Positions 3,001 through 15,916 of a stretch of 64,000 nucleotides of DNA are shown piece after piece (positions within the stretch are counted from its first letter, which is position 1; the number at the start of each line of letters is the position of its first letter). The translations under genes were made by a program, and so were the position numbers. This DNA comes from a virus (Duplodnaviria; Caudoviricetes), in IMG/VR virus record IMGVR_UViG_3300025413_001239. The stretch is one strand, 5' to 3'. The notes under the pieces were generated by a model that had not been told where the DNA came from, ran no database searches, and saw only the letters and a list, made by a program, of their open reading frames with translations.

Positions 3001-3310
3001 TCCTTATAGTCACCCAGATGTGACGATTAAGATGGAAAGGGTTAAGAAGATTGCAATATTTGTTGATGCTGAAATCAAGAAAAGCAATTTGGTTTTCTCA
3101 CCAGTATTATATGGACTTAAGGTCTTACAATATGTGGATGGAATGGACGATTGGGCAACATGGAAAACATTTTGCGAAAACGCAATTTTGGTATCTAATG
3201 AAGTTTGGGTGCTTATGTTCGAAGGTTGGGATAAATCCACAGGTGTTAAGGCTGAGATTGAATTCGCAATAGCTAATAACATCCCAGTCAAGTATATAAC
3301 CATTGAGTAA
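2984..3310 (+). CDS. DUF1937-like / nucleoside deoxyribosyltransferase-like protein
   Basis: ISSPYSHP...VFSPV...WDKSTGVKAEIEFA pattern. Confidence 0.7.
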   Translation: MILISSPYSHPDVTIKMERVKKIAIFVDAEIKKSNLVFSPVLYGLKVLQYVDGMDDWATWKTFCENAILVSNEVWVLMFEGWDKSTGVKAEIEFAIANNIPVKYITIE

Positions 3311-3522
3311 TGTTAGAGTTCAAAAAGCCTATACCTGTTATCGTTGAAGAAGACAAAGAAGGCTACGCATTATATGTTACTGATAGTGGTCTATTAGAGA
3401 ATGACATTTGGTGTATTGTGTTATGTGATGGTGGTCATGTTAGACATTATCGTTCTGACCAAATTAAAATTCATGCAAACGCAACGTTTGGGATTAAAAA
3501 AGATAAAAATGAAAAAGATTAA
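3310..3522 (+). CDS. Hypothetical protein
   Basis: ORF coupled to upstream gene. Confidence 0.6.
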   Translation: MLEFKKPIPVIVEEDKEGYALYVTDSGLLENDIWCIVLCDGGHVRHYRSDQIKIHANATFGIKKDKNEKD

Positions 3523-3763
3523 AGGTTTAGTGTTAATTGTACTTGGTGTACTTATTTTTATGTCGGGTCTGGTTATACTTACATCAAGCACCGATAGAGA
3601 TAATAATTATTTTTATTACAGTCGTGGTTATACCTTAATTGAAAAAAATCAGGGTGGCCATGAGTATAAGGGTAGATACAATGGTGATTATTTCTTCACT
3701 GTACGGTATGATGACGATAAGAATACTTTTTGGACTAAAGAGGTTATAGTTAAATATATCTAG
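3509..3763 (+). CDS. Membrane-anchored hypothetical protein (start moved to ATG 3509)
   Basis: MKKIKGLVLIVLGVLIFMSGLVIL signal/TM segment. Confidence 0.6.
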   Translation: MKKIKGLVLIVLGVLIFMSGLVILTSSTDRDNNYFYYSRGYTLIEKNQGGHEYKGRYNGDYFFTVRYDDDKNTFWTKEVIVKYI

Positions 3764-3784
3764 GAAATTTTATTAAATCTTATT

Positions 3785-4036
3785 ATGTTTATCAAAAAAT
3801 GTAGGAAATCTAAATTTAAAAATAAAATAACCATTTTAACCAAGGTTAATTATTTAATTAAAAGTGGTCGATGGAATAACAAAGATAATAGCCATCGCAT
3901 TTACTATTGTGAAACTTGTAAAGCATGGCATATGACTTCTATGGTTGAGTCAGAATTTGACCCGACAATAAAGCCTGTTGATGTTACTGTTACATTCACT
4001 GATAGATGGGATGCATTACTAAAAAAAGATATATGA
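3785..4036 (+). CDS. Small zinc-finger-like protein
   Basis: RIYYCETCKAWHMTS motif. Confidence 0.55.
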   Translation: MFIKKCRKSKFKNKITILTKVNYLIKSGRWNNKDNSHRIYYCETCKAWHMTSMVESEFDPTIKPVDVTVTFTDRWDALLKKDI

Positions 4037-4315
4037 TTTGGTTGTATATCATTTTAGGTTATTTCTTTTTATATAAGTTATTTTCAAACAGCAAATTACA
4101 TGATGAATAATTATGGGAAAATTAATAGTTAAGTACAATGGTGGGTTAAGCGCAATTTTATGCTCGTTGTGTGAAAAGATTATAAAGACTGGCAAGGACT
4201 ACACAGATGAAGAAGCAGCTTATTCTAGGGGTGAAATTAAGGATTTACCTGAACAGCATTGTGATAGTTGTAAATTACTTCTTGGTAAACCCAAATAATT
4301 TCGTATATTTGCAGC

Positions 4316-5050
4316 ATGTGTTATAAAAAGAAAATATTATTGGTCTTATTTACCCTTATATTCACATGTATAAGGGGTCAATTTAAAAGTACTAGCTCAA
4401 TTGGTGGTAATTATTCACAAGGAAATACTGGCCTTATGCTTGGTTCACTTCAATCTGTTTTACAGTTTGATTCAACTAAGTTTTATGCTAATGTATCACC
4501 TTACTTTTGTTATAGCCAAGTCATGTCTGGTGGTCAATGGGTTACAAAGCAACGTGAATCATACTTAACCACTTCATTTTTAAGAAAATTTGATGATGTC
4601 AATTTCTATGTATTTACAGATGTAGAAAATTCACTTCAAAAGAAATTCAATTTAAGAGCATCTGTTGGTGTTGGTTTAGGTAAATACATTGAAAATAAAA
4701 ATATACGTATATCAACTTCTTTAGGTGTTATGCCTGAATATTATAGTTCATTTTCAAATCAAATTGAAAAGTCCTTAAGATTATCTTTAAGATTACATAT
4801 ACAAACTAAAGGTAAAATGAATTTTAGCACTATAACGCTTATACAACCAGCGATTCTCATGGACCCATTCATAGGTTATAAAAATAACTTTAATTTGAGG
4901 TCAACAAATAACTTTAGTGTTCCGATAAGTAAAACGTTATCAGTAGGTTTACAAGTACTTGTAACAACATCTACGTTATCTGAATACACCAGTACAACGA
5001 TAAAAGCAACGGATATTACTTCATCATTCATAATAACATATTCAAAATAA
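4316..5050 (+). CDS. Outer-membrane beta-barrel protein, DUF481-like
   Basis: Signal peptide, GGNYSQGNT, LRASVGVGLG, alternating beta-strand pattern. Confidence 0.65.
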   Translation: MCYKKKILLVLFTLIFTCIRGQFKSTSSIGGNYSQGNTGLMLGSLQSVLQFDSTKFYANVSPYFCYSQVMSGGQWVTKQRESYLTTSFLRKFDDVNFYVFTDVENSLQKKFNLRASVGVGLGKYIENKNIRISTSLGVMPEYYSSFSNQIEKSLRLSLRLHIQTKGKMNFSTITLIQPAILMDPFIGYKNNFNLRSTNNFSVPISKTLSVGLQVLVTTSTLSEYTSTTIKATDITSSFIITYSK

Positions 5051-5258
5051 ATTTCATCAAAACGATAAAAAAACTAAAATAAATTTGTTTAATTCAATAA
5101 AATTAAGTATATTTGCAACATGAAAATAAATAGAAAGTTACTCGTCTTGATTACAAGCATTATCTTTGTAATCCCTTTTGTAATACTAGTTATATGTGCT
5201 ATTGATGCATCTCTTTATGGTCGTTCATTTGGTAGTACAGTTTTAGATAATTTAATAA

Positions 5259-5756
5259 ATGATTAGCATGAAAAAGTTATTCACACTATTTATGGTATTG
5301 ATTACCATATCTTCATATTCACAGAAATACATATCGTTCACGCCATCAATATTTACAAACGCTGGTTCATTCAATGATAGATTTAGCCCAACAATTGAGG
5401 TTGGACAACAATTTAAATCCTTTAGTCTTGGGTTAGACGTTGGTAAGCTAAATACAACACCACAAAATAGAAATGGTTATAAGGATAGCACTTTCTATTT
5501 TGAAGTTAGACCCAATCTGAATGTATTTCAACAAGATAAATTTACAAATACACTTACAATTGGTTTAGGTTATGTTGTTAATTCATCACAACCAATTATG
5601 AATGAATTTACAACTGGTATGGAATATACACCTAATGAAAGATGGTCTTATAATATTTACTTCGGTACTTATTACTTTAGTGGTAAATCAGCTGCTAGTA
5701 ATAGCAATTTTTTTGGCGTATCTTTTATGTATTTTCTTAAACCTTATAAATTTTAG
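5259..5756 (+). CDS. Secreted or outer-membrane beta-barrel-like protein
   Basis: Bacteroidota-style signal peptide (MKKLFTLF...SYSQ), amphipathic strands, terminal Phe. Confidence 0.55.
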   Translation: MISMKKLFTLFMVLITISSYSQKYISFTPSIFTNAGSFNDRFSPTIEVGQQFKSFSLGLDVGKLNTTPQNRNGYKDSTFYFEVRPNLNVFQQDKFTNTLTIGLGYVVNSSQPIMNEFTTGMEYTPNERWSYNIYFGTYYFSGKSAASNSNFFGVSFMYFLKPYKF

Positions 5757-5779
5757 ATATATATTAAATAAAAAATAAT

Positions 5780-6157
5780 ATGCTTTTACCAGTATATGGC
5801 GGAACGCTAATTAAAAAAGAAAACAAATGGTTTGTTACATTTACACGAACCATAAACACACCAACACTATTTCCAGAAGAGAAAGTTGTTGAAGAAGAAT
5901 TACAAGTATTTCCAGATGAAAAGTACCCTCTGGAATCGCTTGAAGCGAATGTGGATAAAATTGTTGATTTTACGGTAGCTAAGAAGTTTTTGGCTAAAGA
6001 AACTCTTTGGTATGCAAAGATAAACGTAACACCTAAAAAAGAAACTTGGGATGATTTGGTTGCTAAATTTAAGTCTGAGGTCAAATGGTCTTCTGATGTA
6101 AACGTTATGTTTATTGAATGGCTTAAGGAAACATATAAGGTCCCAAAAAAGAAGTAA
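5780..6157 (+). CDS. Hypothetical protein
   Basis: ORF in same-strand gene run. Confidence 0.6.
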   Translation: MLLPVYGGTLIKKENKWFVTFTRTINTPTLFPEEKVVEEELQVFPDEKYPLESLEANVDKIVDFTVAKKFLAKETLWYAKINVTPKKETWDDLVAKFKSEVKWSSDVNVMFIEWLKETYKVPKKK

Positions 6158-6315
6158 CATGAAGTTATGGCGATTATGGGCAAAGGCCCTTGGAGAGAAA
6201 GCTGGCAGCACAAATGAAGAGGCTGATAGGATAGCTATCATTAGAACAATTATTATTTTAATCTATCTTGGAACAAACATTTGTATTGTTGCTGGGATAA
6301 TAAGACATTGGTGAA

Positions 6316-6567
6316 ATGGAAGAGAAGTTAAAGGCTAAGGAATTAGTTCAAGAGTTTTACAATATTATTAGCGAAGGTATGGAAAGAAATCCACCAGAAG
6401 AACATATGATTTCTCATATACTCGCACCAATGTATTGGGATAAAGCTAAAGAATGTGCTAAAAGAGAACTAGCTAATATCCTTCAAGTGATTGATGAATC
6501 CATACTTTACAAGCAAAAGAAAAGGGATTTCTGGAAAAACGTTGATAATGAAATTGATAAGTTATGA
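6316..6567 (+). CDS. Small protein, paralog family M(T/E).K.KA.EL
   Basis: Similar to ORFs at 7344 and 7508. Confidence 0.6.
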   Translation: MEEKLKAKELVQEFYNIISEGMERNPPEEHMISHILAPMYWDKAKECAKRELANILQVIDESILYKQKKRDFWKNVDNEIDKL

Positions 6568-7343
6568 TAACAGCAGAACATTGGGTTAACCAACAATTCA
6601 GTAAACAGATTATATCAGAAGATATCTATGCTTCTAAACAAGGTATTATTGAAGCTATGGTAATATTTGCTAAACTTCATGTTGAAGCAGCATTAAAAGA
6701 AGCTATTAAACAACTACCAGTTGATGATAAATTAAATAAGGATATTTTTGTTATGGAAAAAATAATAAATTGCTATCCACTAACAAACATAAAATAAAAA
6801 GTTATGATATATATTTTATTAACATTATACTTGTTGGGTGTGTTTATAACACCTATCATTTATCTAAATATGTCTTTTTCACTTAAGTATACACCGATAA
6901 CCAGCTTTTTCGGTTTGATTATCAGGTCTGTATTTTGGCCATTAGCTATAATTGAACGTATCTTTTTTTATTGAAAATATTAAATTATGAATATTAAAAA
7001 AGTCTTAAAAAGATTAGTTGGTGTTAACATATTAATAAATCTATTTGTTATACTAGTATGTTTGGGTGATACTCAAAACAAATATGGTAAGGTATTCATA
7101 GAGAAATATTCTTGTGTGTTAATTATTTGTTTAAAATCATGTTGTGTTATAGTATTAGCACTTTTATTGATATTTTTAATAGCGTGGTGCTTTGGTATAA
7201 CCGAAGAAAATAACGATGACGACAATAATTTTGATTATTATTATTAAATTATGATAGAAAAATACTAAATCACGAGAGTTTTATTCTCGTTCAATGAACC
7301 CAGTTGGTAAAGATAATATTATTAACCCATTAAATAAATTAAA

Positions 7344-7511
7344 ATGACACCAAAAGAAAAAGCAAGAGAATTATTTGAAAAATATACAGATTATTCTGAC
7401 AGCCAAAAACAATGTGCATTAATTGCAGTTGAGGAAATATTAGGACATATGGGAGCTGATAGAGGTTATAAATTTTGGACTGAAGTTAAACAAGAATTAG
7501 AAAAGCTATGA
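7344..7511 (+). CDS. Small protein, tandem paralog (55 aa, not in ORF track)
   Basis: MTPKEKARELF...GHMGADRGYKFWTEVKQELEKL. Confidence 0.7.
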   Translation: MTPKEKARELFEKYTDYSDSQKQCALIAVEEILGHMGADRGYKFWTEVKQELEKL

Positions 7512-7735
7512 CACCAAAAGAAAAAGCTTGGGAGCTTGTATCTAAATTCGGCCAAATATACGTATGGGATAACAATATGCCTAACGAATTTAATGAAGAG
7601 TTCAGTGGAACAATGCCTAGGCAAATAGCCAAAGAATGCGCTTTAATATGTTGCAATGAAGTATTAGGTCATATGGGTGCTGATAGAGGTTATGCATTTT
7701 GGACCGAAGTAAAACAAGAAATTGATAGCTTATGA
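7508..7735 (+). CDS. Small protein, tandem paralog
   Basis: MTPKEKAWELV...GHMGADRGYAFWTEVKQEIDSL. Confidence 0.7.
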   Translation: MTPKEKAWELVSKFGQIYVWDNNMPNEFNEEFSGTMPRQIAKECALICCNEVLGHMGADRGYAFWTEVKQEIDSL

Positions 7736-8142
7736 AATTAAAAATTAACACGCCATTAATTAATGGTGAATACGTTAAATTACAAAATAGAAAAGAAATT
7801 CAACATTTCTTCTCGGCAATTTCTGATAACGAATTACAAAATTATATTGACACAGCCGTTGATTTAAATAATTTGTATTCAAATTATTATTTTCAATTTT
7901 TTGATTCATTTAATGATTTTCGTTACTATATTTTATTTAAAACGTTTGAGATTAAGAAAAATATTTTACTTAGAGAGTTAATTTCAAACTCTTTAAAAAA
8001 GAAGTATAATCTTGATGATATTACTCCTTATTTTAAGGATGGTATGTTGTTAAATAGTGAGGATGAAAATGATTTTTATGTTATGATTCAAATTTTTAAA
8101 GATACAACATTAGATGATATGTTAAAATATTCTAATCTATGA
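7732..8142 (+). CDS. Hypothetical protein
   Basis: Coupled ORF. Confidence 0.55.
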   Translation: MKLKINTPLINGEYVKLQNRKEIQHFFSAISDNELQNYIDTAVDLNNLYSNYYFQFFDSFNDFRYYILFKTFEIKKNILLRELISNSLKKKYNLDDITPYFKDGMLLNSEDENDFYVMIQIFKDTTLDDMLKYSNL

Positions 8143-8379
8143 TAACAGACGTTAAGGATATTTTAGAGTTTGCTGAATGGCGGCATAATAACCGATGGTT
8201 CGATTATGACATCGAAGCTAATAAATGGCGACATACCTTTATGTGGGGTAAATGAACTGTTCATTAAAACTTAAAAAATATTAGTAAAAATTAGATAAAA
8301 ATAAATGCGTGTATTTTTGTCTTTTTCATTTTTTCAATATATTTATTATTAAGGGTGTAAATACATCCATCGTTAAATT

Positions 8380-9612
8380 ATGTTAAGAGCAATTAAAATA
8401 AGACTTTACCCAAATAAAACTCAACAAAGTTATATTAATAACTTGATGGGTTGTTATCGTAAAGTATATAATCTATCTCTTAATTATAAGATAAACGAAT
8501 ATAACTTAAATGGTGAAAACGCTAATATGAAAAGTATTGGTAATCAATTTCATAATAATTGGACAAAATCAGATGATTACCAATACCTAAATAATCATAA
8601 CACAAAAGTTTTGAAACAAGCAATTATTAATATGCTTGATTCGTATAAAAGATTTTTTGTTAATGGTAATGGTTATCCTAAATTTAAATCAAAACATGAT
8701 AATAAACAATCATGCAGATTTCCATCAGAAGCAATATCTAAACGTAACGATTATTCATCATATAAACTAACACTTATATCACAATTAAAAGATATTAAAT
8801 TTAGTTGTTCTGAAGAATATTCAAAATACTTAAACAAGCATAAAGATAATATTAGGTCTGCAACATTAACCAAAAATAAATCAGGTGAGTATTATTTAAG
8901 TATCTTAATTGATGGAGATTTATTAAAATCATTAAACACACCAAGTAATCAATTTATTGGTATTGATTTAGGTATAAAGGATTTTATTATAACGTCTAAT
9001 GGGGAAAGATTTGAAAATATTAAGATAAAAAGGGGTAATGAAAAAAAGTTAGCTAGACTACATCGTAAGTTATCTAAAAAACAAAAAGGAAGCAAGAATA
9101 AAGAAAAAGCGAGAATTAAGTTAGCTAAATTTAATCATAAACTAACTAATATTAAAGAAGAATATTTACATAAGATAAGTAATCAATTATTAAACGAAAA
9201 TCAAGTTATTGTAATTGAGGACTTAAATGTGAAGGGTATGATGAAAAATCATAATTTAGCAAAATCAATACAAGAATTAAGTCTTTACAATTTTAAGAGT
9301 AAATTATTGTATAAGAGTAATTGGTATAATAGAACAATAATTGAGATAGATAGATTTTATCCTAGTTCAAAGTTATGTTCATCTTGTGGGTATAAGAATA
9401 TTGATTTAGAACTGAGTGATAGGGAATGGACTTGTCCATCATGTAAAACAAAGCATGATAGAGATTTTAATGCTTCTATTAATATTCTAAATGAGGGGGT
9501 AAGGTTATATAATAATATAATACCCATCCGTTGTGGGGAATTAACGCCTTTGGAGAGTAGTCAACAGACACTCAATGAATTAGGAAATCGGGATTTGCAT
9601 AATATTGTGTAA
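8380..9612 (+). CDS. tnpB: TnpB RNA-guided endonuclease
   Basis: N-terminal HTH (AIKIRLYPNKTQ); RuvC-I GIDLGIK, RuvC-II IEDLNVKGM, CSSCG/CPSC zinc finger, RuvC-III DRDFNASINI. Confidence 0.93.
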   Translation: MLRAIKIRLYPNKTQQSYINNLMGCYRKVYNLSLNYKINEYNLNGENANMKSIGNQFHNNWTKSDDYQYLNNHNTKVLKQAIINMLDSYKRFFVNGNGYPKFKSKHDNKQSCRFPSEAISKRNDYSSYKLTLISQLKDIKFSCSEEYSKYLNKHKDNIRSATLTKNKSGEYYLSILIDGDLLKSLNTPSNQFIGIDLGIKDFIITSNGERFENIKIKRGNEKKLARLHRKLSKKQKGSKNKEKARIKLAKFNHKLTNIKEEYLHKISNQLLNENQVIVIEDLNVKGMMKNHNLAKSIQELSLYNFKSKLLYKSNWYNRTIIEIDRFYPSSKLCSSCGYKNIDLELSDREWTCPSCKTKHDRDFNASINILNEGVRLYNNIIPIRCGELTPLESSQQTLNELGNRDLHNIV

Positions 9613-9626
9613 GTTTCGTTGAACGG
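9500..9626 (+). ncRNA. Predicted omegaRNA scaffold overlapping the tnpB 3' end (boundaries approximate)
   Basis: Position at the element right end, as is typical for TnpB systems; GC-richer segment CCCATCCGTTGTGGGGAATTAACGCC. Confidence 0.5.
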
Positions 9627-9767
9627 TACTGCTATGAGTAAAGCTAATTATGAAAAGAATTACATGAAAACAACTGAGGAATTAACTGAATTATTTCTTA
9701 AGGATAGAGAAAAAAATTTGGTGGTTAAAAAAGATTAACGTATATTTGCATTCATAAATAAATACAA

Positions 9768-12188
9768 ATGGAAATAATAGCAGGTAAATGGTATAAGAAT
9801 TCTCAATGGACAAGTTCAAATGACTTATGTAAAGCAACAGGTGTTGTAGGTTCTAATGTAATCCATTTTAATGAAAAAATTACTAATGGTAAGTTTAAAA
9901 AGGAAGATAATTTTTGGTGTTATTTATCAACTTGTGTAGAGGCTGAATATGAAGAGTATGGGAAATATTTACCTGATGGCCACCCAGATAAACGTAAAAC
10001 AAGAAAAATTGAGGATATGCCTGTTGAATTAGTTAATTTTCCATCAGAAGGTTATTGTGAAACAACTGATAAAAGACTTGTTAAGTACTTAATTAGTAGA
10101 CCTGAATCAATGGGTGGTAACCCCCTAAAAAGTGATGCGAAGGGTATCGCTTGGAATCCTACCAGTTATTGGTATGTCGTGGGTGTCTCACTTAAATCGG
10201 TCTACACATTAGAACATTTGGAAAAGTTCTTCACTGAAAAGCCTAAACCTATTAATGAATGGGGTTTAAATACCTATTTAGTAATCGTTAAAGAAGGTTA
10301 TTTAGATTATGGTTATAAACTTACCAATAAACCAAAAACTAAAATTGGTCACGTTGGTAGAATTGATTTTTTTCGTAATGATGAATCTGTTACAGGTGTA
10401 AGTGGTATTGAATGGGTATTTGAGAAGGACTTAGCTAAGTGGTTTGCAACCAAAGAAGAAGCTGAGGCATTTGCTAAAACACTTAATAAAGACTCAATGA
10501 ATAATGAATTTAAAAAGGGTGATTATATTGTTACTCTTAATGTAGGTGTTACAACTACTAGTTGTGGTAAAAATGGCTTTTGTTTTAAACAACGTGAGGA
10601 TGCTAACTATATAGAGCCAGTATGTGATTTAAAAAATAGTGACACTAATAGTCATTGGGGGTTAACATTTGATAAATCTAACCATTTAAAAGATTGGCGA
10701 TATGCAACTAAGGATGAGATTCAAATTTATAATGAGTTAAAAAAGCCTTTTGATGTAACTGCGTTGCCTAATGTTGGTAATTATATTACCGTTACACATA
10801 ATGATAATGAAGATGAAAAAATTATATGCAAGTATAATAGGAAATGGGATGCTTTAAGATGCTATGGTCCTATAATTAGTAATTTCGATTCTATTGGTAA
10901 ATTTACGTTTAACAATGATTTAGGTGTTTGTTTTATCGGTGATGATAGAAAGTATAGACCTTCGACTGATGAGGAGATTGCTTGGCTTGATGCTTGTGTT
11001 AAAAATGGTGGTATTGTTGGTGGTATAGTTGATATTATAGAACTTATTGATTTTAAAACATGCGCTGGTAGAATTGTTAAGGCTAAAAAGGACCGTCCGT
11101 ATTCCATACCAATAAAAATTGGTGAATATGGAACATTAGATGATGAATATGGAATTAAATTATCTAATTATAGCGGTACTTTTGGTTTTGTTGAGGACAC
11201 ATTTTATGAGGATTTTGAGGTAATGCCTAAGGGGTTCACGTTACCAGAACCTAAAGAAGAAATTGAGAAGGAACCTGAATATAAGGTTGTTGAATGTAAA
11301 TCACAAGCTGAATGGGACTTTGTATCTAAGAAGTTAGGTTATACATGGAATGAACCAAGATTTGATTATTGTAATGATAATTGCATTAATATTCAACGAA
11401 AATCTCGTAGTAATCTTGCTTTCTATAAAAAAGAAAATAGCTTAATATACTCATTCGATGAATGGTGTAAAAAGTTTAATCATACTTTTGATAAATTTGA
11501 TGGTATTGAGTATGTGGAACTAGATATAGATTTTTGTGGTTATAAAGAAGGTGATATAGCTAAAGTAATTAATACGGATGGTTCTGTATTTGAAATATTT
11601 GCACCAAATAGGAAATCGCAGTCAAGTTTTACTCCAAATGTATTTGCTAGTAGAACTTACTTAAATCCATCAACCAAAGAGGCGTATGATAAGCAACATG
11701 CTACGGTAACACTTGATACATCAGGTAGTATGGTTGGTCTTTATAAAGAAACACCTAAAACAGTTGATTTTAAGGTTGGTGATTGGGTTGTATTTGAAGT
11801 TGATAAATGCTTTGGTGATTTAAGTTATTGCAAGACTGTTGCTTGGGATAGAGATATGGTCCTTCAAATTGAAGGATTTGAAACTCGTGGTGGTAACCCC
11901 AAATTTACAGCTAAACAAATGCAAAATCGTTATCCTCACCATAATTGGGGAAGTTTTGATGGTGTAAATTCCTATGACATAGGCAATACTGTAAGTCTTT
12001 TCAGACACGCTTATTCTTGGGAAATTCCAAGTGAAACAACAAAAGATACAACTTATGAACTTAAACCAATTAGCACAGTTAAGACTTATCAATTGTTTAT
12101 TGAGAAAACACAAGCTAAGCCAGTTGTTGCTGATAAGCCAATTAATTTAATTAAAACAAGAAAGTTACAAATAAATTTGGTGGATTAA
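9768..12188 (+). CDS. Large modular hypothetical protein
   Basis: Recurring modules FK(K/V)GD(Y/W)(I/V)V and R.(A/S)T..EI. Confidence 0.75.
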   Translation: MEIIAGKWYKNSQWTSSNDLCKATGVVGSNVIHFNEKITNGKFKKEDNFWCYLSTCVEAEYEEYGKYLPDGHPDKRKTRKIEDMPVELVNFPSEGYCETTDKRLVKYLISRPESMGGNPLKSDAKGIAWNPTSYWYVVGVSLKSVYTLEHLEKFFTEKPKPINEWGLNTYLVIVKEGYLDYGYKLTNKPKTKIGHVGRIDFFRNDESVTGVSGIEWVFEKDLAKWFATKEEAEAFAKTLNKDSMNNEFKKGDYIVTLNVGVTTTSCGKNGFCFKQREDANYIEPVCDLKNSDTNSHWGLTFDKSNHLKDWRYATKDEIQIYNELKKPFDVTALPNVGNYITVTHNDNEDEKIICKYNRKWDALRCYGPIISNFDSIGKFTFNNDLGVCFIGDDRKYRPSTDEEIAWLDACVKNGGIVGGIVDIIELIDFKTCAGRIVKAKKDRPYSIPIKIGEYGTLDDEYGIKLSNYSGTFGFVEDTFYEDFEVMPKGFTLPEPKEEIEKEPEYKVVECKSQAEWDFVSKKLGYTWNEPRFDYCNDNCINIQRKSRSNLAFYKKENSLIYSFDEWCKKFNHTFDKFDGIEYVELDIDFCGYKEGDIAKVINTDGSVFEIFAPNRKSQSSFTPNVFASRTYLNPSTKEAYDKQHATVTLDTSGSMVGLYKETPKTVDFKVGDWVVFEVDKCFGDLSYCKTVAWDRDMVLQIEGFETRGGNPKFTAKQMQNRYPHHNWGSFDGVNSYDIGNTVSLFRHAYSWEIPSETTKDTTYELKPISTVKTYQLFIEKTQAKPVVADKPINLIKTRKLQINLVD

Positions 12189-12219
12189 TAAACATCACAT
12201 ATATTTGCATCATAAATAA

Positions 12220-12566
12220 ATGGTTATGGTTGATTACAAAATTAAAGGAACGAAAATACCCAAATTAAGCGGTGTCGATGTTAGATTATCTCATTGGGGT
12301 GAATCATCAACAAATACTCGAAATCATGAATCATCATCATCTCTTGTTTCATACGGTTCAAAAGTTTTTAATGGTGAAGTATGGATAATTTGCGATTTAC
12401 CAAAAAGCACTGATAGTTACCATTATATGTTTAAATTGGTAGATATTGAAAAGCTGCTGCGGAATCAAGTAATAGTCCTGAATCAACCGTTTCCCAACCA
12501 CAAAATGGTGATGGTCCAATCAAATTAATTAAAACAAAAGTTCTTAAAATAAATTTGGTAGATTAA
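12220..12566 (+). pseudogene. Probably frameshifted gene sharing its C-terminus with the 9768 protein
   Basis: Adding one A at ~12450 gives ...PIKLIKTKVLKINLVD*, matching PINLIKTRKLQINLVD*. Confidence 0.5.
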
Positions 12567-12630
12567 AAAATATCACGTATATTTGCATCATAATAACAAG
12601 GATAATTTTTAAACAAAAAAAACAAGTAAA

Positions 12631-13080
12631 ATGGCAGACGCTAAAAGTAAAAAAGTAACCGTTAAGGGTGAAGTAAGTGAAGAAGTAGTTAAAGTGAATC
12701 CTTTCTTGGAGTCAGCGTTGGAAAACGTGAACAAGACTGAGGCAGATGTTTTGACCGAAAAAGTCACATTGTTCTTGGAAGAAGCGGCAATCGAAACCGA
12801 AATGCAAATTGCTGAGCGTACCACTGGTGCTATCCCAAGAAAGGAATTGGAGTTAAGAACCGCTACTCGCAACCTTGATAAGGCTGAGGTGGCTCTTGAA
12901 AAAGCTAAAGTTGCTGTTCCAAGCAACAGTAAATTGGAAACGTATTTGTCAAATTTGTATTCGGCTGAAAATGCTGTAAGACATGCAAAGGTAACCGTTG
13001 AGGCTATCGAAGGTCAAATCACTGACTTGAATAAAGAAGTGGTTAAGCTTGAAGAAATCCTTGCACGTTTCAAAGCGTAA
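12631..13080 (+). CDS. Coiled-coil protein
   Basis: Heptad-rich E/K/A sequence with its own promoter and terminator. Confidence 0.75.
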   Translation: MADAKSKKVTVKGEVSEEVVKVNPFLESALENVNKTEADVLTEKVTLFLEEAAIETEMQIAERTTGAIPRKELELRTATRNLDKAEVALEKAKVAVPSNSKLETYLSNLYSAENAVRHAKVTVEAIEGQITDLNKEVVKLEEILARFKA

Positions 13081-13095
13081 TTTTAGTCTAAGATG

Positions 13096-13129
13096 AAAAA
13101 CCCCAACAAAATAAATTGTTGGGGTTTTT
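13096..13129 (+). terminator. Intrinsic terminator
   Basis: AAAACCCCAAC...GTTGGGGTTTTT. Confidence 0.8.
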
Positions 13130-13174
13130 GTTTTTATCAGAATTTATCTGTATATTTGCAATAAAATAACTTAT

Positions 13175-13429
13175 ATGAAAGTATTATTAACAACTTTATT
13201 ATTAACATTAGCTTCTTGTGCTTGTACAATAAAAAAACCAGCACCAGTTGAATTTGAAAAAAAGACTTTCATTGCAGATTCCGTGGTGTATCACGACTTA
13301 CAAACGGACAACATTGCTCAGGTGGACCCTTACACTCGAGTTCACTTAAAAGGAACCGATGTTTGGTTACAAATAAATGGTTTTGTTTGTGAAGGGCAAG
13401 AAGTTCAAGTTTTTGTCGCTAAAAAATAA
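13175..13429 (+). CDS. Putative lipoprotein
   Basis: Signal peptide with LASC lipobox. Confidence 0.6.
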   Translation: MKVLLTTLLLTLASCACTIKKPAPVEFEKKTFIADSVVYHDLQTDNIAQVDPYTRVHLKGTDVWLQINGFVCEGQEVQVFVAKK

Positions 13430-13434
13430 ACACT

Positions 13435-13728
13435 ATGAGTTTTATACTTTTTGAATCATTTAGTGGTGTTGAACATAAGATTAATACCAATCAGATTACA
13501 CACCTTAAGATTCATCCTAATGAAGATAAGTGCATATTAACAGGTGTTAATCATCAGGATGCTAGAACGTTACCTAATTTTGAAATACGCTTAGCGTGTG
13601 GCAAAGTCATAGATAGAAATACACTAATCGGAGCCGCATCACCTAGCTTCATAAGGTTACAAGAATCTCAATACAGAACTGTAAGATTTGAAATTGAGGA
13701 ATTAATAAGAAAATTAAAAGACTTATAA
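13435..13728 (+). CDS. Hypothetical protein
   Basis: ORF in operon. Confidence 0.6.
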   Translation: MSFILFESFSGVEHKINTNQITHLKIHPNEDKCILTGVNHQDARTLPNFEIRLACGKVIDRNTLIGAASPSFIRLQESQYRTVRFEIEELIRKLKDL

Positions 13729-13730
13729 GT

Positions 13731-14168
13731 ATGTCAATAACAACAGCATTTAAGAATGCTTTTATAAAAGCCAAACAACGAAATTGGCCTGAGATTTATA
13801 TCGGTGTGGACATTCATGATACCATGATTAAATCCAATTATAAGCATGGTGAAATACCAACTGAGTTTTACCCTTACGCTATCGAATGCTTACAAGCACT
13901 CTCAAAACGTAAAGACATCAAGCTTATGCTTTATACATGCAGCCACCAACATGAGATTGAACAATACATGGAACTCTTTAAATCCCATGATATACACTTC
14001 AATTTTGTTAACGAAAACACCGATGTTAAAACAGACTTGGGTGGTTATGGCAACTACGATAAAAAACCCTATTTTAACGTTCTACTGGATGATAAAAGCG
14101 GTTTCGATGGTGAACGAGATTGGCTGGACATTAAGATACTCTTAGATATTATTAACCCATTAACATAA
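13731..14168 (+). CDS. HAD-superfamily phosphatase-like protein
   Basis: IGVDIHDTM (motif I variant), LYTC, LLDDK motifs. Confidence 0.7.
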   Translation: MSITTAFKNAFIKAKQRNWPEIYIGVDIHDTMIKSNYKHGEIPTEFYPYAIECLQALSKRKDIKLMLYTCSHQHEIEQYMELFKSHDIHFNFVNENTDVKTDLGGYGNYDKKPYFNVLLDDKSGFDGERDWLDIKILLDIINPLT

Positions 14169-14208
14169 TCCAATGTACAAATCAAGATAAAATTAACGAA
14201 TTTTACTT

Positions 14209-14373
14209 ATGAATCAAAGAAACGATAAAGGCTTAAGAGAAGGTTATTGGGAAGTTTATTATCCAAATGGCAAATTGGGATGGTTTGGCACATATAAAAA
14301 TGGTATTTTTATTGGGTATTATGAAGATTACAACAAAGATGGAATCATGATTAATAAAGATTTTTTCTTATGA
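14209..14373 (+). CDS. MORN-like micro-protein 1 (54 aa)
   Basis: MNQRNDKGLREGYWEVYYPNGKL...KDFFL. Confidence 0.75.
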   Translation: MNQRNDKGLREGYWEVYYPNGKLGWFGTYKNGIFIGYYEDYNKDGIMINKDFFL

Positions 14374-14588
14374 GTAATATAGTTTATAAAGAATACTTCC
14401 ATGAGAATGGTAAGATTTGGCAACGTGGTTATAAGAAAGAACATAGAAGAATAGGTCACTGGGAATGTTTTTACAATAATGGCAACTTGAAATGGTTTGC
14501 CACATTTGATAAGAATCACAATTTAGTTGGATATAGTGAAGATTACGATGAGGATGGTAAATTATGACTTAAAGAATTTTACTTATGA
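14370..14588 (+). CDS. MORN-like micro-protein 2; in-frame TGA at 14565 precedes LKEFYL
   Basis: EYFHENGK...GHWECFYNNGNL. Confidence 0.65.
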
Positions 14589-14821
14589 ATCAATATAACT
14601 TAAACAGAAAAAGACATGGTCCATGGGAACAATACTACGAGAATGGTCAACTCTGGTATAAAGGTGAATTCATTGACGGAAAAAGACATGGTCCATGGGA
14701 ACGTCACATAAATGATGGTAATTTATTGGCTAAAGGTGAATATATTAATGATAATTACATCGGATTCTGGATATGGCATAATATTACAAATCAAGATAAA
14801 ATTAATGAATTTTACTTATGA
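14585..14821 (+). CDS. MORN-like micro-protein 3
   Basis: HGPWEQYYENGQLWYKGEF...EFYL. Confidence 0.8.
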   Translation: MNQYNLNRKRHGPWEQYYENGQLWYKGEFIDGKRHGPWERHINDGNLLAKGEYINDNYIGFWIWHNITNQDKINEFYL

Positions 14822-15060
14822 ATAAACTTAATGAAAACGGTGAAAGACATGGACTTTGGGAAAAATACCATACAAATGGTAAACATCATTATAAGGGCGA
14901 ATATATAAACGGTAAAAGAAACGGACTTTGGACATTTTATTGGTGGAATAATACCCCAAGTTATACTGGCTTCTTTAAAGATAATGCATTTATTGGTTAT
15001 TTTGTATTTCATTATAATTTTGCTGGTTTATTAATAAACTCTAAGAGTTTTTATCTTTAA
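14818..15060 (+). CDS. MORN-like micro-protein 4
   Basis: HGLWEKYHTNGKHHYKGEY...FYL. Confidence 0.8.
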   Translation: MNKLNENGERHGLWEKYHTNGKHHYKGEYINGKRNGLWTFYWWNNTPSYTGFFKDNAFIGYFVFHYNFAGLLINSKSFYL

Positions 15061-15107
15061 CATTTGTTAGTTTCAATTTATTAACGTATATTTGCAAAAA
15101 AAACACA

Positions 15108-15410
15108 ATGACAAAAGTACCTAAAGCGTATATTAACGCAAATTACACATTGGCAGTAAAGCCAACTGAAGAACAACTATTGGAATATTATAAGGATTTC
15201 GGCCACGATACTATAGAAAGTATCCTAGAAGAACAAGGTTCTTGGGAAGAAGTAATCCGTCAATGGTTCGTTAACACAATCTTCAATCAAGACTATAAAG
15301 ACTATCAAACAGCCAATAATATCTTCCAATATGAAGATGATGGTGAATCAATTGAAGTTGATATAGTTGATGATGATAAATGGGTAAGTGATGAAGATTA
15401 TATTTACTAA
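15108..15410 (+). CDS. Acidic hypothetical protein with its own promoter
   Basis: Promoter at ~15064-15095; D/E-rich. Confidence 0.7.
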   Translation: MTKVPKAYINANYTLAVKPTEEQLLEYYKDFGHDTIESILEEQGSWEEVIRQWFVNTIFNQDYKDYQTANNIFQYEDDGESIEVDIVDDDKWVSDEDYIY

Positions 15411-15420
15411 AAATTAAGTC

Positions 15421-15612
15421 ATGGAAAAAATATATCATTTAAGAATACTCGATGGAAGCAGTCGAGGTTATACAATCTCTGTTACCAGTGACAGAGTGGA
15501 TAGTTATCAAGCTAATTACCATTTCTATAATATAGTTGATGGGTATAAAGTTGATGTGGCCTTTTATCCAAGTGGTCGTACAATAATTGAAAGAATTGAA
15601 GATGGAGAATAA
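15421..15612 (+). CDS. Hypothetical protein
   Basis: ORF in operon. Confidence 0.55.
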   Translation: MEKIYHLRILDGSSRGYTISVTSDRVDSYQANYHFYNIVDGYKVDVAFYPSGRTIIERIEDGE

Positions 15613-15916
15613 AGAACTTTGTGGTTCGTGTGGTGTAAAAATGGCTCAATGGTGCTACCTATCAGGTTATGGGAACGGTGAAAGCCCTTACTCTTGTGAT
15701 GATTGTGTTACATCAGTAGACTACGATGGTTGTTCATGTAACTGGCACTACTTACAATACGAACAACCAGAAGGTATAGAAGGTAAAGACTTTAGATTCA
15801 TACTTAGTGAGGGTATAACAAAAGAAGATGGAATCTGGATTCGTTTAGATGAACAAGGAAGACCCTACCCTTGTGCTGAATACTGCTTCGATGAAGAAGG
15901 CTTCGATAAAGATTAA
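15602..15916 (+). CDS. Cys-rich hypothetical protein
   Basis: CGSC, CDDC and GRPYPCAEY motifs. Confidence 0.65.
   Translation: MENKELCGSCGVKMAQWCYLSGYGNGESPYSCDDCVTSVDYDGCSCNWHYLQYEQPEGIEGKDFRFILSEGITKEDGIWIRLDEQGRPYPCAEYCFDEEGFDKD

Follow-up and report, generated by a model that had tools for sequence, protein, structure and literature searches.

The window analyzed here is a stretch of 64,000 nucleotides from IMG/VR virus record IMGVR_UViG_3300025413_001239, a 148.7-kb record that CheckV estimates to be 44% complete. Between positions 8139 and 9738 it holds a small gene interrupted by an insert that carries a tnpB gene, and the features of this locus, all on the plus strand, are as follows.

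8139 to 8248, plus strand: 5' half of the interrupted 73-aa gene, comprising codons 1 to 36 and two bases of codon 37.
8245 to 8248, plus strand: predicted TAM, the left-flank GGGG, of which 8247-8248 are the GG core dinucleotide of the target.
8249 to 9626, plus strand: transposase-less element assigned to the IS607 family, 1378 bp, present once in the record, with boundaries that can shift within the shared GGTA.
8256 to 8283, plus strand: left-end arm of an imperfect subterminal inverted repeat, 28 nt, 7 nt inside the junction.
8340 to 8346, plus strand: TATTTAT box, invariant in seven elements, 33 nt 5' of the tnpB ATG.
8380 to 9612, plus strand: tnpB, 410 aa, with RuvC residues D196, E280, and D362 and a zinc finger of the form CSSC...CPSC.
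9523 to 9626, plus strand: 3' part of the putative omega-RNA scaffold, four covarying helices (e.g., 9523-9537 and 9589-9618).
9600 to 9627, plus strand: matching right-end arm of the inverted repeat, directly at the junction, with the GG core at 9625-9626 within ACGG (C at -3).
9627 to 9646, plus strand: predicted guide template UACUGCUAUGAGUAAAGCUA in the right flank, unique in the record.
9627 to 9738, plus strand: 3' half of the 73-aa gene, beginning with the third base of codon 37 and running through the stop.

The junctions named in the original prediction are found in the window exactly as claimed: on the left the sequence runs ...TTTATGTGGGG up to position 8248 and continues with TAAATGAAC, and on the right it runs ...GTTGAACGG up to 9626 and continues with TACTGCTATGAG. 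When 8249-9626 is taken out in silico, 8139-8248 and 9627-9738 join into a 222-nt ORF of 73 aa, and the fusion of two frames that had been proposed is thereby confirmed. Because GGTA is common to both junctions, the breakpoint could formally lie anywhere within these 4 nt; we set it after GG, following the convention for IS607. The ATG of the 5' half (8139) shares bases with the stop codon of the preceding gene (ATGA), and at the junction this half reads ...TTT ATG TGG GG/T AAA TGA. In the occupied state its frame continues inside the element and terminates at 8255 (...MWGK and stop), leaving the remainder as a C-terminal fragment; a small frame at 9619-9738 stops 30 nt 5' of the next gene, which encodes 806 aa. 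The interrupted gene is presumably dispensable in the occupied phage.

When the 73-aa product was searched against 5.8 billion proteins, a single cluster came back, made up of proteins that are also 73 aa long and share 79% amino acid identity with it; its members sit on ENA metagenome contigs. Three independent contigs among them were read, L083 (731 nt), L166 (4.3 kb), and L165 (86.7 kb), and each aligns with the fused window sequence over 222 of 222 nt, ungapped, at 79-80% nucleotide identity. Their joint reads ...GAATGGGG/TACCGCTATAAG..., i.e., ATGGGG/TACC, with no base extra or missing. By tblastx, L165 is collinear with window positions 3173-15916, including the 806/822-aa gene and an array of MORN mini-genes, and is without the 1378-bp insert. 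Since an uninterrupted 73-aa homologue occurs on three contigs, ungapped and with the joint TGGGG/TACC, the observation is not due to chance. The empty allele that the original prediction had proposed to look for in relatives thus exists, and its joint on L083, L165, and L166 agrees with the predicted junction rather than differing from it.

The upstream neighbor of the interrupted gene (window 7732-8142, 136 aa) is not homologous to its counterpart at 2-439 on L083 (partial, at least 145 aa) and at 9078-9998 on L165 (306 aa), while the flanks beyond are collinear. Synteny with L083 is therefore downstream-sided, and the longer L165 shows broad collinearity; the difference looks like a local gene replacement beside the insertion site. 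A closer empty allele was sought in IMG/VR and in JGI metagenome contigs, where degenerate DNA patterns of the empty junction had no match and the 73-aa homologue (P0001) as a query had none either. The search of IMG/VR for relatives of the 806-aa downstream protein found none, and megablast of 7000-11000 against GenBank phages returned no match.

Within the 410-aa ORF, the Pfam domains HTH_OrfB_IS605, OrfB_IS605, and Cas12f1-like_TNB are above threshold. Residues 3-373 align with the TnpB of ISDra2 (8EXA/8H1J, E 1e-50), with D196, E280, and D362 falling on the catalytic residues D191, E278, and D361 and with both CxxC pairs present, so the RuvC triad is intact, as had been claimed. The ISDra2 TnpB-omegaRNA complex (PDB 8EXA, 8H1J, and 8BF8) is alike in architecture, in triad and zinc finger, and in taking its guide from the right flank; it differs in its Y1 transposase, TTGAT TAM, and subterminal hairpins, where the present element has a GG core and belongs to a serine-recombinase lineage. 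From IMG/VR we recovered 80 TnpB relatives. Many lie on contigs 100-550 kb long, and identity reaches 57-71% in the closest. Members of the close subfamily (55-71% identity) came from viral contigs only, and the best match among 185,000 species genomes was 50-51% identical. Some large phage contigs hold two or three diverged copies of the TnpB lineage (L015/L018, L016/L024, and L022/L023/L025), suggesting that jumbo phages were invaded more than once or that the element transposed within their genomes.

Both junctions of the insert carry GG (8247-8248 and 9625-9626), and target duplication is absent. The two inverted-repeat arms, 8256-8283 and 9600-9627, are 79% complementary, with a local alignment score of 33 against 14.9 +/- 2.6 for shuffles (maximum 25). 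This offset arrangement recurs in six relatives (L003, L004, L005, L008, L026, and L031), although the left end of L031 was placed by local alignment only and is tentative, its inverted-repeat scan having been swamped by AT-rich noise. The left-end arm is probably the binding region of TnpA. At the right, an end of the form ...(T)TGAACGG is common to eight elements, whose sequences are unrelated immediately beyond it. Ends of the IS607 family are described as having a (G)GG target, no target duplication, and offset imperfect inverted repeats (Chen et al. 2018, PMC6188088). IS607 and IS1535, of Helicobacter pylori and Mycobacterium tuberculosis, are accordingly like the present element in their insertion at (G)GG without target duplication and in having no inverted repeats at the tips, with an imperfect repeat at unequal distances from the ends (PMC6188088).

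Neither the serine recombinase domain Resolvase (PF00239) nor Y1_Tnp (PF01797) has a match anywhere in the accessible 148.7-kb record, an estimated 44% of the genome, and across this sequence the claim that tnpA is missing stands. A transposase is instead found in relatives. L031, with a TnpB 63% identical to that of the window and a right end reading ...TTGAACGG, encodes a 204-aa TnpA that overlaps the tnpB start and combines a MerR-type HTH with a Resolvase domain, the same pairing of N-terminal MerR-like HTH and resolvase catalytic domain as in the TnpA of IS607 and IS1535 (PMC6188088). L014 and L016 also carry a TnpA adjoining tnpB (Pfam Resolvase, E 1e-19, and MerR_1), and L029 and L087 have a TnpA match by tblastn only. 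These few are the only loci with a tnpA among the roughly 160 fetched, and the lineage is therefore mostly TnpB-only. The window copy differs from IS607 and IS1535 in being without tnpA, and the sequences are unrelated beyond the family level. Taken together, the GG at the junctions, the lack of a duplication, the inverted repeat, and the TnpA of relatives with the same end uphold the prediction of an IS607-type element with a GG core and support the reading of 8249-9626 as a non-autonomous member of the family. Because it has no tnpA and is present as a single copy in the record, we file it as a non-autonomous IS607 derivative rather than a complete IS607.

Two related alternatives were considered for the insert: an IS200/IS605-type element, moved by a Y1 transposase through a single-strand mechanism, or an IStron, in which splicing by a group I intron would save the 73-aa protein. 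The best match among solved structures, ISDra2 TnpB, does belong to the IS605 family, and the insert lies in sense orientation within its gene, as IStrons do. However, the relatives' TnpA is a serine recombinase, and IS200/IS605 was rejected on the lack of a PF01797 match in the record and on G-rich junctions with a GG core, which together with the offset inverted repeats stand in place of subterminal hairpins and a TTAC/TTGAT-type target. The IStron was rejected as well, since the Rfam group I intron (Intron_gpI) had no match at E<=1 in window positions 7500-10500 or in nine related loci, and the left non-coding end measures 131 nt. We consider this pair of alternatives extremely improbable.

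Several further observations concern the wider lineage. In a sister subfamily (L014-L025 and L080, TnpB 53-57% identical), to which the TnpA_S carriers L014 and L016 belong, the right end reads ...GTTCAAGTTTTAAYATACTG/T and not ...TTGAACGG/T, which suggests a core dinucleotide of TG rather than GG at that end. In silico removal of the element opens frames across the joint in L026 (2888/4282; 113 + 199 aa, minus strand) and in L005 (2852/4244; 43 + 26 aa), so elements of this lineage may often insert within phage genes. L012 and L013 share the same element and left context and diverge right after ...GAACGG/T at 4262, with the L012 contig ending 16 nt further on; the divergence may reflect either a genuine rearrangement or a break in the assembly where the element ends.

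A consensus built from the last ~115-155 nt of eight elements contains 22 pairs in four helices, of which 14 show compensatory double changes. In this alignment 92.6% of cells are paired, compared to 39-47% when the partners are slid by 1-3 columns, and the covariation score is 0.69, compared to 0.09-0.23 in the slid controls. In the window the helices (~9523-9618) overlap the last ~30 codons of tnpB, after which UUGAACGG closes the scaffold and the flank begins; the right end lies 14 nt past the tnpB stop. This arrangement supports a structured omega-RNA scaffold that stops at the right-end boundary. The predicted start of the guide at 9627 is corroborated by three features, the invariant GAACGG of eight elements, the divergence that follows it, and the end of the covarying scaffold at that point. 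The predicted guide template itself, TACTGCTATGAGTAAAGCTA (9627-9646), has a single occurrence in the record.

The nature of the guide bears on the possibility that TnpB has been domesticated and serves the phage as a weapon for competitor exclusion or host targeting, and is no longer a selfish element. Such a role would suit a close subfamily found in viral contigs only, with no cellular-genome match above 50-51%. Yet the guide has no other match in the record and is simply the right flank of the element, the arrangement that a selfish element has by default, which makes a weapon unlikely; in addition, transposon architecture is kept at the ends, and the insertion destroys a phage gene. On balance we regard domestication as very unlikely.

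RAGATH-18 (RF03064), which forms the core of the reRNA in a different clade of IS607 TnpBs (PMC11061315), gave a weak Rfam match of 25.7 bits at 9547-9586 and of 27 bits in L031, at a place equivalent to that in ISFba1. Membership was rejected because both scores lie below the gathering score of 44.9 and the scaffold lies partly within the 3' end of tnpB; we read the match as a distant resemblance. The ISFba1 TnpB (Cell Res 2024, PMC11061315) is otherwise alike in its IS607 association, its length of ~390-410 aa, and its G-rich TAM. It differs in a reRNA of ~187 nt that lies wholly downstream of tnpB, whereas the window scaffold overlaps the coding end, and in its published TAMs, AGGAG/GAGGG (PMC11061315), versus the GGGG predicted here.

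The left flanks of related elements read GGGG, AGGG, TGGG, AGGG, GGGG, AGGG, and once TCGG, i.e., NGGG in six of seven. The rule is not absolute, as L004 has TCGG and L031, at its putative left flank, ACGG. The contrast between NGGG left flanks and ACGG right ends, along with the similar TGGG published for CboTnpB, lends support to the G-rich TAM of the original prediction. In the CboIStron of C. botulinum, TnpA_S uses TGGG as its integration site, where GG is a strict requirement, and its excision leaves no scar; CboTnpB recognizes a TGGG TAM with the strictest discrimination at -3, and the UCGG end of its scaffold spares the element's own right end (10.1101/2023.11.20.567912). The window element is like the CboIStron TnpA_S/TnpB system (Zedaveinyte et al.) in its GG core, its scarless donor joint, and its xGGG left versus xCGG right, and also in an omega-RNA drawn from the tnpB 3' end plus the right flank and in the frequency of TnpB-only copies. 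It differs in being without a group I intron and tnpA, with a left non-coding end of 131 nt, in its carrier, which is a large lytic-type phage rather than a bacterial chromosome, and in a TAM (GGGG) that is predicted.

Upstream of tnpB, the TATTTAT box was compared in the leaders of the window element and of L003, L004, L005, L007, L008, and L026, where it is invariant in all seven; it is a probable element-borne promoter element. It is followed by a putative GGG...CCC hairpin, noted by eye, which in the window reads GGGTGT-AAAT-ACATCC (8353-8368) and varies in sequence between elements; box and hairpin together (8340-8369) may constitute an element-borne promoter of phage type with a 5' stem-loop. 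RNAalifold gave no consensus structure for the tnpB 5' leaders because the leader alignment was out of register.

These features also bear on whether the insert is a decaying relic, an IS607 remnant stranded after the loss of tnpA, in which TnpB and the omega-RNA would be inactive, homing would play no role, and the 73-aa gene would simply be dispensable. In favor of a relic are the lack of tnpA in the 148.7-kb record and the single copy there, and a matching cleavable target was not found in any collection searched. On the other hand, TnpB is not truncated and keeps every catalytic and zinc-binding residue, the omega-RNA helices are intact in the window copy, and the promoter-like box is invariant. 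Most relatives are likewise TnpB-only yet intact, which indicates selection on TnpB itself. We therefore think decay an unlikely account of this locus.

The anatomy of the element, the empty-site joint, the conserved ends, the RNA covariation, and the link to TnpA in relatives are all directly observed, and the explanation that we hold with high confidence is that the element, which has no transposase, belongs to a lineage of the IS607 family found circulating among large phages, and that its omega-RNA and TnpB would target the empty site. Counted against this explanation are the missing tnpA in a 44%-complete record and the single copy there. We propose that a serine-recombinase TnpA, acting in trans at some time, inserted the element at GG in the 73-aa gene. 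Transcription continuing past the right end into the flank would then provide the guide UACUGCUAUGAGUAAAG(CUA), and the RNP would cut phage genomes in which a GGGG left flank is directly joined to guide-matching sequence, i.e., the empty site. The occupied site would be spared because its right end, ACGG, places C at TAM position -3, and from the pairing of xGGG on the left with ACGG on the right, a contrast like that in C. botulinum, we infer that the RNP would cut the empty site only. If an occupied genome, be it a sibling copy under replication or that of a coinfecting phage, then served as the repair template, the element would be restored or spread; phage replication offers many sibling templates and coinfection offers foreign ones. 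Expression of the RNA, the TAM, cleavage, and homing are all inferred from this anatomy, and the homing would be directed against element-free phage relatives.

The empty alleles at hand set limits on such homing. Against the guide, their target carries mismatches at positions 4, 10, and 20, joined in L083 by one at 17, and ISFba1 TnpB loses all or most of its cutting activity when a single mismatch falls at positions 1-13 (PMC11061315). Because of the mismatches at 4 and 10, these relatives are probably poor targets that cannot be cleaved. The empty-allele phage is ~20% diverged, and the 3-4 mismatches in the 20-nt target match the divergence across the whole gene and thus give no sign of selected escape. 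An empty allele with a perfect guide match was found in none of IMG/VR, JGI metagenome contigs, and the three contigs read from the 73-aa cluster.

A broader scenario, which we offer tentatively and with more doubt than conviction, is an IS607 lineage confined to phages, where rare master copies with a TnpA would seed new GG sites and the TnpB-only copies, far greater in number and including the present one, would persist and spread as RNA-guided gene drives between coinfecting jumbo phages. Such spread would be a form of "non-restorative homing" or marker exclusion, the RNA-programmed counterpart of the free-standing homing endonucleases Seg and Mob of T4, and if it were true, the two guide mismatches in the related empty allele could be read as drive resistance. 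A 2026 review lists "non-restorative homing" into coinfecting phages or plasmids as a possibility (PMC13565253), and the literature searched held no experimental test of TnpB-only gene drives between phages.

Here, we describe a clean but ordinary example of the known IS607 TnpB/omega-RNA kind, which reveals no new mechanism. The points that distinguish it are modest and comprise its giant-phage carrier, a close subfamily recovered from viral contigs only, an omega-RNA that overlaps the coding end (of the Cbo type and not the RAGATH-18 type), and the availability of an exact empty site. The locus provides a natural "before and after" pair, in which an occupied site and a collinear empty site are accompanied by conserved ends and a covarying scaffold. 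With such a pair, guide, TAM, and target can be predicted directly, and the locus may therefore serve as a possible test system for TnpB-only gene drives between coinfecting phages.
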